The notes below the pieces were generated by a model. It made no database searches. It was not told where the DNA came from and worked only from the letters and a program-made list of their open reading frames with translations. Made by a program: the position numbers and the translations under genes. From a virus (taxonomy: Duplodnaviria; Caudoviricetes), in IMG/VR virus record IMGVR_UViG_3300031418_000003: DNA of 64,000 bases; one strand, 5' to 3'. Positions 49,990 to 53,756 of the stretch are shown piece by piece; positions within the stretch are counted from its first letter, which is position 1; every line of letters begins with the position of its first letter.

Positions 49990-50407
49990 AATTTTAAGAA
50001 GGGCGGTACCGATTCCGTCTCGGTGGTCGAGGGCTAGGCGTGCGAAGGGAGTAGGGATGCGACATCCCTATGATATGTCTTGGTTGTAATAGCTTCCAAG
50101 TAACTCTAGATGAGACAAATGACCCCGGCAGCCAGCCGGTTAAACATTGTGCGGAATCACAATGAGGGGCAAAGACTCTTGCATAAAGATTTATTAATAT
50201 AAGTCTTTGAGCGAGCGTTTCGGGTTGGGTGCGCCAAAGGAGCCATCGTAGGCCAGGTCTGAGGGATAGTGACATAGTCACGTGATGTCAGAAGCGGGTT
50301 GCCGTGAGGTAATCAAACCGAGTACAGTTGGACTTTGTCTGACCTGGGAGTTAGTGACTCCCACCAAGCTTCCATAGTTCAGTCGGTAGAACGAGGTATC
50401 TGATGGA
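49990..50407 (+). ncRNA. Structured RNA upstream of the HNH gene (contains motif copy A)
   Basis: Many stems including a GUGA tetraloop hairpin; shares five sequence blocks with 50913-51012. Confidence 0.55.
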
Positions 50408-50876
50408 TTTAAATGATTTAATGGTTCTTAAGGATAAGATAACCCGTGATCCAGAAACTAACTGTTGGAACTGGAATAAAAGCACCAGGGAAGGCTATGG
50501 TCAGATAACGATAGATGGGGTGCATTGGACCACACATCGGTATGTTGCCACAATCATCTTTGGCGTTATTCCAGAAGGCCATGTAGTGAGACATTCTTGC
50601 GATAACAGATTGTGCTGTAATCCAGGTCATTTAAGACTGGGAACACATAAAGATAACTGGAAAGATTCTGAGTCAGTTCACAGGGAATCTCATGTTAAGA
50701 TGAGAAGGGCATTAGGTTGGACAGTTGGAGATACGATTTATCCGACATCCAGAACAGCTCAGAAAGAAACAGGACTTCCTATGAAAACTCTAATGAGACA
50801 TATGAAGAACGGGATCTTCGATTTGGAAGCGTATCGCTCCGGATGTAAAAAGCGGGGAGTAATCCCTAAAGTTTAG
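50403..50876 (+). CDS. HNH homing endonuclease (HNH_3 domain plus NUMOD1-like HTH)
   Basis: CWNW...GYG...HRY...VVRHSCDNRLCCNPGHL..GT.KDN; C-terminal YPTSRTAQKETG. Confidence 0.9.
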   Translation: MDLNDLMVLKDKITRDPETNCWNWNKSTREGYGQITIDGVHWTTHRYVATIIFGVIPEGHVVRHSCDNRLCCNPGHLRLGTHKDNWKDSESVHRESHVKMRRALGWTVGDTIYPTSRTAQKETGLPMKTLMRHMKNGIFDLEAYRSGCKKRGVIPKV

Positions 50877-52608: not shown

Positions 52609-53261
52609 GTATATTATGTAATTCAATCGAGTGTAACTGTTTGCTGTTCTGAGGAATAGCATGGTTTCATTACCCCGTTATATTCGACTGTAAGACCCTC
52701 GTTATCCAGGTGTGGGTACATAACGAGGGCAAACCAGCAGGTTGCACTGCTGGACTAAATCCAAGAGTGAAAGCTGGCTTAAGTCCAGTAAAAACTAAGT
52801 AGCTCTTGGTGGGCGATGCAATAGTTTGAAAACTACTGTGTCATAGCAACGCGTCTAAAGTAAACGGTCCCTTCGTATAAGCTCAATACACTTTGGCGTC
52901 CGCGCCGAAGAAATAAGAGATGAACCCGAAACACTCTCAGGGACCCCTCTTCGGAGATAATAGCTTTAGAAACGGGAACGTTGTGCCCATTCCTTAACGA
53001 TGGTTATCCGTCGTTATCCCTTTGTACCAGTGGCTGATATCCAAGTAGAGCTTTAATTATACCTGACGGATAGCGCTCACAGTGTTTCAACCATTGGTAC
53101 AACCTCTTGAGGATCTTGAACGAAAACCGTAGGGTAACCGCTGAGCACATTGCGTTGCATTCAAGGCGGCTGTAGCAGGAGACTGGGTAGTCTTCCTGGG
53201 TGATATCAAGATCCTCAACCTTATCTACTCTCCGTGATATGGAGTAGACAAACCCTGTGGT

Positions 53262-53369
53262 GGGGGCATCGTAACCATCTGATGAGTCCGCGATGTAAAA
53301 AACAATGAGACGAAACGGGTTCTGTCAAAGGGGACTCCAACTCCAGACAGATCCGTCATGAATCGCTCC
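53262..53369 (+). ncRNA. Type I hammerhead ribozyme
   Basis: CUGAUGA 53279-53285; stem II GUC/GAC; GAAA 53312-53315; stem III cgg..tctgtc/gacaga..ccg; GUC cleavage triplet 53355-53357; stem I cat/atg plus ggggc/gctcc. Confidence 0.85.
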
Positions 53370-53614
53370 GCCTTAACTGTGAAGAGCATCCTCAGTCTAC
53401 GATTCTAGAGGAACAGCAGCGCTACCTGCAAAGGACCATTGGCAAATGGGATCTTAGGGTTAGCAAACAGTCCGCTCCTTTTGCCAGAGGAGAAGTTGTC
53501 AAAACCAAGAGGTGTAGACAGCCTTTAGTTCACTGTAGTGAAGAATCGGGGTTGCTCCCGTAGTAGTCACGAACAGTGATCTTTAGAGTGTTTACCGGAT
53601 AACAATATCGTACG

Positions 53615-53640
53615 CCCCTACCTCCTCACGGGGGTAGGGG
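53615..53640 (+). terminator. Intrinsic terminator closing the large ncRNA
   Basis: cccctacctcc-tcac-gggggtagggg followed by tttatgttt. Confidence 0.7.
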
Positions 53641-53756
53641 TTTATGTTTGGCTTTTCATTTGATCATATGAGCTCGTTCCATATATGTCCTAGGATGGAT
53701 GATATATGAAACATCTTATTATAGTTAATAAGACTATTTCGAAATAGAGGTAACAT

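Follow-up and report, generated by a model that had tools for sequence, protein, structure and literature searches.

The DNA analysed here (the window) is a stretch of 64,000 nucleotides from a 266.8-kb IMG/VR phage contig with terminal repeats. The closest named relative of this phage is Erwinia phage AH04 (genus Meadowvirus, family Chimalliviridae), and a phiKZ-type split RNA polymerase subunit and a divergent family B DNA polymerase are also encoded in the window. An earlier reading of the sequence without database searches (the sequence-only reading) had called it a nucleus-forming jumbo phage. That placement can be kept as a taxonomic one, made through the classification of AH04 in the Chimalliviridae.

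Towards the end of the window, 1148 bases separate a 206-aa ORF (end 52608) from the gene of a DUF7484 virion protein (start 53757). No plus-strand ORF of at least 60 aa was found in this gap. It is largely taken up by an ORF-free non-coding RNA (ncRNA) of ~1 kb, presumed to run from about 52620 to about 53650, of a kind found in OBP/AH04-like giant phages, and a hammerhead ribozyme is embedded in it. The features of the locus are as follows.

52609..52624, plus strand: promoter-like motif GTATATTATGTAATTC, directly 3' of the upstream stop codon; identical in the window, AH04 and three IMG/VR contigs (L003, L004 and L005)
52625..53252, plus strand: 5' domain of the ncRNA, ORF-free, with blocks UGUAAGACC at 52689 and GUAAGUAGCUCUUGGUGGG-like at 52795
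53253..53266, plus strand: hairpin Pa, CCCU/GGGG (53253-56/53263-66) with loop GUGGUG, adjoining the 5' side of the ribozyme
53267..53272, plus strand: 5' strand of the pseudoknot, CAUCGU, 3 nt upstream of stem I, pairing with 53290-95
53276..53278, plus strand: 5' strand of stem I, CAU, pairing with 53358-60
53279..53285, plus strand: core positions C3 to A9, CUGAUGA, invariant in 12 aligned sequences except N7 (U, C or A)
53286..53311, plus strand: stem II, GUC/GAC (53286-88/53309-11) with a 20-nt loop; three pairs invariant
53312..53315, plus strand: core positions G12, A13, A14 and A15.1, GAAA, invariant in 12 aligned sequences
53315..53356, plus strand: stem III, 11 pairs (53315-26/53346-56) with U53321 bulged
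53357..53358, plus strand: predicted scissile bond, after C17 (C53357) and before A53358, from the core geometry; G-U-C at 53355-57 invariant in 12 sequences
53358..53360, plus strand: 3' strand of stem I, AUG, pairing with 53276-78 and forming the predicted 5' end of the 3' cleavage product
53365..53387, plus strand: hairpin Pb, GCUCC/AGAGC (53365-69/53383-87) with the conserved 13-nt loop GCCUUAACUGUGA
53388..53613, plus strand: 3' domain of the ncRNA, with blocks CAAACAGUCCGCUCC at 53464 and GUAGACAGCC at 53514; conserved in nine phages
53614..53650, plus strand: intrinsic terminator, a 12-bp stem with 8 G-C pairs (53614-41) followed by UUAUGUUU

On the comparative evidence given below, positions 53267-53360 are a genuine type I hammerhead ribozyme, the cleavage itself being predicted. 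Both core segments and the cleavage site named in the sequence-only reading were found in place, as were the GUC/GAC helix of stem II and the CAU/AUG helix of stem I; U16.1 and C17 correspond to 53356 and 53357. The proposed type I topology also holds, since only stem I is open-ended, stems II and III being capped by loops. Stem III had been described as 10 bp with one bulge. The bulge (U53321) is confirmed, and the pair count was refined to 11, to which an apical helix of 4 bp is added (53330-33/53341-44). Its loop ACUCCAA (53334-40) carries a YUCCAR motif that is conserved across the aligned sequences. The loop of stem II contains the 3' strand of the pseudoknot, GCGAUG (53290-95), followed by an A-rich return segment (53296-53308). 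A fourth pair of stem II is C.A in the window and C-G or U-A in nine of 12 sequences. The 3-bp stem II of the window is acceptable because very short stem II helices are tolerated in hammerheads (Perreault et al. 2011, PMC3088659). Thermodynamic folding was uninformative: the minimum-free-energy structure predicted here had no more stability than those of shuffled sequences (z = −0.47).

The pseudoknot 53267-72/53290-95 (6 bp) provides the tertiary contact between stem I and stem II that is looked for in hammerheads. In the 12-sequence alignment 97% of its cells are paired and four of the six pairs are compensatory, with strand pairs CAUCGU/GCGAUG, CGUCG/CGACG, UGUCGU/ACGACA, GUUCGU/GCGAAC and CCCG/CGGG among the examples. 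The spacing from the pseudoknot to C3, made up of stem I and a linker, is constant at 5-6 nt in the alignment. This structure replaces the extension of stem II proposed earlier, because GCGAUG (53290-95) is a strand of the pseudoknot with 53267-72 as its partner. The candidate extension CGAUG/CAAUG was rejected, being weakened in AH04, whereas CGAUG covaries with 53267-72.

A distal part of stem I, ggggc/gctcc, had been proposed as well. This helix was discarded as unsupported: its 5' strand is the 3' arm of Pa and its 3' strand the 5' arm of Pb, both of them conserved local hairpins. Shewanella phage SXP01, Pantoea phage Survivor and Edwardsiella phage pEt-SU lack the partner region altogether. 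A hairpin in the position of Pa was predicted in 12 of 12 sequences, with differing stem sequences, and the corresponding RNAalifold pairs (749-752/759-762) include compensatory changes. For Pb, 98% of the cells are paired and three of five pairs are compensatory, while the 13 nt of its loop (consensus GCCYUAACNGUGA) are nearly invariant. Pb is present too in the hammerhead-less Aeromonas phages PS1 (L039, about 2126-2148) and pAEv1810 (L038, about 1074-1096). Within the 3' RNA module it may serve as a site for binding or for a tertiary contact.

Syntenic loci were gathered from IMG/VR and from GenBank phages by means of the flanking DUF7484 protein. A hammerhead was found at the same syntenic spot and on the same strand, upstream of the DUF7484 virion gene, in 12 further phages: Erwinia phage AH04, Pseudomonas phage OBP, pEt-SU, Kosakonia phage Kc263, Serratia phages Yubaba and Sureiya, Klebsiella phage N1M2, SXP01, Survivor and the three IMG/VR contigs L003-L005. 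The alignment comprised 12 sequences, the window and 11 of the 12 further phages; Sureiya was left out, its matched stretch being identical to that of Yubaba.

Decisive support for the predicted ribozyme comes from this conservation, that is, from the core and from helix covariation across 12 homologues. Loss of core nucleotides in related phages, which had been named as a finding that would count against the ribozyme, was not seen: the core is kept in all 12 aligned sequences, with variation at N7 only. N7 is the sole free core position in hammerheads. Standard pairs were formed in 89.1% of the pair cells of the alignment, compared with 25-44% when the 3' partners were slid by 1-3 columns. 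Changes on both sides (compensatory) were counted in 17 of 29 pairs, and the observed covariation score was reached by none of 500 shuffles. Each of the three helices contributes: all four pairs of stem I change on both sides, the fourth pair of stem II covaries, and compensatory changes occur in five of the 11 proximal pairs of stem III and in three of its four apical pairs.

The bare motif alone is indecisive because a looser hammerhead descriptor matched 42 of 300 shuffles (14%). A strict descriptor, set to the stringency of the observed element (stem II of at least 3, stem III of at least 6 contiguous and stem I of at least 3 pairs), had matches in five of 1500 dinucleotide-shuffled versions of the window; with a pseudoknot of at least 6 bp as a further requirement, one of 1500 matched.

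The 12 sequences were used to build a covariance model, which scored them at 71-100 bits and found a single ribozyme copy in the 266.8-kb genome of the window phage. Unrelated type I hammerheads of the ordinary sort, from other phage contigs, were likewise recovered (22-39 bits). With this model, which is tuned to the present subfamily, no match was found at E ≤ 1 in the whole genomes of PS1, ZPAH34, AhC3_1 and EL, nor at E ≤ 0.1 in pAEv1810, RisingSun, FishSpeaker and Vibrio phage 2 TSL-2019. The sole match in the D6 genome had 13.7 bits (E = 0.57). A second pattern scan of IMG/VR yielded 39 stretches; apart from five known relatives, the family model gave no score to any of them where the pattern lay.

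The check with Infernal and the Rfam models proposed in the sequence-only reading gave no match at threshold, although the core and all helices are present. Rfam 15 had no matches in the whole window at gathering thresholds. In E-value mode the sole match at the locus was a partial Hammerhead_3, spanning core and stem II only, with 16.6 bits (E = 3.5) against a gathering score of 48.5; five relatives searched at E ≤ 1 likewise yielded no usable match to ribozyme or host RNA. The miss may be due to the long loop II and the long stem III. The Rfam threshold describes what the current models can detect and does not define the ribozyme.

The hammerhead is unannotated in every GenBank record, the locus being blank or, in Kc263, overlapped by a ‘hypothetical protein’. 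This CDS is QYN80068.1 (L032 2033-2224). Another ‘hypothetical protein’ CDS, N1M2_252 (L034 1371-1883), overlaps the 5' RNA domain on the opposite strand. In both cases the gene call is probably spurious and covers ncRNA.

Hammerheads are well known in phages, and thousands of natural hammerheads are known. To our knowledge, the biological roles of those in bacteria and phages are largely unproven. The present ribozyme is a pseudoknot-stabilised type I hammerhead of the sort already described in phages and prophages; as a ribozyme class it is not new. About 40% of natural hammerheads have pseudoknots of this sort, which fast cleavage requires (Perreault et al. 2011, PMC3088659). With the pseudoknotted type I hammerheads of phages and prophages (PMC3088659; Rfam clan CL00010, Hammerhead_1 RF00163) the present family shares the catalytic core, the three-way junction, the open stem I, the 6-bp pseudoknot in place of loop-loop contacts and the location in a non-coding part of a phage transcript. 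It differs from known phage type I hammerheads in its loop II of about 17-21 nt with an A-rich tail, in its long two-part stem III with the YUCCAR loop and in a stem I of only 2-4 bp. It also lies within a ~1 kb ncRNA and not between protein genes, and scores below the Rfam thresholds. What is new is the setting within a large uncatalogued ncRNA, the occurrence in Chimalliviridae, the failure of Rfam 15 to detect it and the absence of GenBank annotation. In the literature library searched, no paper was found linking hammerheads to jumbo or phiKZ-like phages.

Klebsiella phage Miami, which belongs to another genus of the Chimalliviridae, carries an unannotated type I hammerhead that is also pseudoknotted (MT701590.1:222403-222477 = L090 1501-1575). 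There, CGUCG upstream of a 4-bp stem I pairs with CGACG in loop II, and stem II has 5 bp. Like the hammerhead of the window it is located in an ORF-poor, ncRNA-like region. It differs in its position upstream of a tubulin-like (PhuZ-type) gene, in a shorter stem III and in flanks without similarity, and it scores 39.4 bits with the family model.

The host ncRNA is delimited by a putative start and by a terminator. The promoter-like motif showed no enrichment within the window as a 12-mer and was rejected as a repeated element, for which reason we can only infer its promoter function; 52609-52624 is taken as the putative start region of the ncRNA, with a presumed transcription start. In Yubaba and N1M2 the RNA begins immediately after a tRNA-Met. 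The marker blocks of the 5' domain (~0.6-0.7 kb) are common to 11 of the 12 hammerhead-bearing phages. On nine full-length sequences RNAalifold predicted 142 pairs, 74 of them with compensatory changes, and many covarying helices fall in the 5' domain, for which there was no Rfam match. GOLLD, ROOL and other large ‘ornate’ phage ncRNAs are likewise large, highly structured and near tRNA genes; in comparison with these and with other catalogued large ncRNAs, the host RNA gave no Rfam match, at E ≤ 10 for the locus and at E ≤ 1 for five relatives.

Downstream of the hammerhead, two architectures were found. In the first (the window, AH04, L003-L005, OBP, Kc263, Yubaba and N1M2, with Sureiya grouped here through the identity of its matched stretch to that of Yubaba), the hammerhead is followed by Pb, a 3' domain of ~250 nt and the terminator. 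In the second (SXP01, Survivor and pEt-SU), the terminator alone follows about 15-25 nt after the hammerhead, and the 3' domain is absent from the whole genomes of these three phages. In the Aeromonas phages PS1, pAEv1810 and AhC3_1, the 3' domain occupies the same syntenic place and no hammerhead was found anywhere in the genomes with the family model. From both architectures and these loci with the 3' domain only, the constant unit is the 5' domain plus the hammerhead, and the predicted ribozyme marks the boundary between the 5' domain and an optional second module.

This modularity could also be read as that of a selfish or passenger cassette, inserted between two RNA genes and kept without benefit, which may cleave with no function attached to the cleavage. 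The Aeromonas relatives with a 3' domain in the syntenic place and no hammerhead agree with such a cassette, as do the same pseudoknot design at another locus in phage Miami and the frequency of hammerheads in selfish elements (PMC3088659). We nevertheless consider it unlikely. One position has been kept although the flanking virion protein is only 69-89% identical, the same 5' domain is attached (markers in 11 of 12), and the genome holds a single copy. The invariant core and the compensatory changes in every helix indicate purifying selection on activity.

The terminator stem CCCCUAC/GUAGGGG is conserved in nine phages. In the window and in AH04, OBP, Kc263, Yubaba, N1M2, SXP01, Survivor and pEt-SU it is followed by UUUAUG. 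Its sequence is kept across distant phages without covariation drift, and the motif is essentially unique in the window; the hairpin may have a role beyond that of a generic terminator.

Between the terminator and the start codon of the DUF7484 gene lies a separately conserved block (53658-53756, TTGATCATATGAGCTCGTTCCATAT...), with 92% identity in L003 and L004. In L003-L005 it stays beside the DUF7484 gene despite an inserted gene, which suggests that it is probably the promoter or leader of that gene. The inserted gene is convergent and encodes 141-144 aa on the minus strand between the ncRNA and the DUF7484 gene (L003 3416-3850, L004 3426-3851, L005 3412-3846). It had no Pfam or PHROG match, is accompanied by a different, bidirectional-looking terminator, and is missing in the window and AH04.

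The fixed order of ribozyme and virion gene raises the question of an effect on the latter: if read-through transcripts were cut, the DUF7484 mRNA would acquire a 5'-OH end or be detached from the RNA that precedes it, and its stability would be tuned in this way. The ribozyme is always upstream of this gene on the same strand, at a distance of 93-102 nt in SXP01, Survivor and pEt-SU, and processing of mRNA was proposed by Perreault et al. for prophage hammerheads (PMC3088659). A strong terminator separates ribozyme and gene, however, in the nine sequences with the CCCCUAC/GUAGGGG hairpin, and the conserved block at 53658-53756 suggests that the gene has a promoter of its own. Such tuning of the virion genes is therefore rated very unlikely.

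The reading that we prefer, and hold to be highly probable on this comparative basis, is that a genuine hammerhead within the ~1 kb ncRNA cleaves itself after C53357 and acts as RNA punctuation. The ribozyme would be transcribed within the ORF-free RNA (about 52620-53650) and its active fold held by the 6-bp pseudoknot, which joins loop II to the 5' flank of a very short stem I. Self-cleavage after C53357 would release a 5' product of ~735 nt (5' domain and ribozyme body) with a 2',3'-cyclic phosphate end and a 3' product of ~290 nt (Pb, 3' domain and terminator) starting with 5'-OH. The fragments of ~740 and ~290 nt foreseen in the sequence-only reading are consistent with the promoter-like motif at 52609-24 and the terminator at 53614-41, the start being the putative one. 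A stem I of only 3 bp should let the products come apart and make re-ligation unfavourable. The ribozyme would thereby set the 3' end of the 5'-domain RNA and free it from downstream sequence with no need for host RNases; the sequence released would be a second RNA module in the window phage and eight aligned relatives, or only the terminator hairpin in the three others. The position of the hammerhead between the 5' and 3' domains, or before the terminator alone, together with the 3' domain of Aeromonas phages without a ribozyme, points to punctuation and the making of a 3' end as its likely role. Among the roles suggested earlier, maturation best fits this comparative anatomy.

Ligation, also suggested earlier, has found no support. 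The two ends could in principle be ligated, so that the RNA is circularised or joined to another RNA, and the predicted end chemistry would suit RtcB-type ligases. The 266.8-kb genome holds only one ribozyme, and a search of it for RtcB and for the PF09414 RNA ligase found neither, which makes ligation or circularisation unlikely; a search for T4 Rnl1 was uninformative, as its control gave no match anywhere. In three phages, moreover, the 3' product would be merely a terminator hairpin. Taken together, we regard cleavage followed by joining as extremely improbable.

Separation of the two products by the punctuating ribozyme may be incomplete if they are held together by a long-range helix. A first candidate, 52636-45/53462-71, was rejected for an uncompensated A.A mismatch in AH04, L003 and L004. 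The alternative given by RNAalifold, 52686-91/53467-72 (6 bp), pairs in 51 of 54 cells with zero compensatory changes; this candidate helix, if real, could hold both products together. Environmental RNA from four runs, one of which is probably DNA by its label, contributed five short contig matches, mostly to the 3' domain (53374-53721) and too sparse to show ends. None of these five bridges or ends at the cut site, and they have no bearing on expression or cleavage.

In nucleus-forming phages, transcripts are made within a protein shell that excludes most host proteins. It is conceivable, and put forward here tentatively, that built-in hammerheads give these phages host-independent RNA processing, by which one unit is cut into separate stable RNAs, here of ~735 nt and ~290 nt and of an uncatalogued family, and that the recurring pseudoknotted design at different ncRNA loci in different Chimalliviridae genera is a signature of this.

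The ribozyme has a fixed place where two conserved modules of a large uncatalogued ncRNA meet, and it adds to the little-explored RNA biology of nucleus-forming phages. The clade includes cultured phages with their hosts (OBP on Pseudomonas fluorescens, AH04 on Erwinia billingiae, and N1M2, Yubaba and pEt-SU), so that a role in RNA maturation is directly testable by point mutation. Practical gaps are exposed as well: the hammerhead models of Rfam 15 miss the element, and GenBank records are blank here or contain seemingly spurious ORFs.

Some further observations concern the surroundings of the ncRNA. ARAGORN detected zero tRNA genes in the window between 47000 and 54000. One to four tRNAs lie just upstream of the ncRNA in the syntenic regions of AH04, OBP, Kc263, Yubaba, N1M2, Survivor and the Aeromonas phages. 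In PS1, an Rfam tRNA match of 46.7 bits (L039 1541-1622) falls within an unannotated gap and is not in the GenBank feature table. In the window, a free-standing HNH endonuclease gene (PF13392, PHROG 6254) is present at 50403-50876, in the RNA-rich island upstream of the ncRNA.
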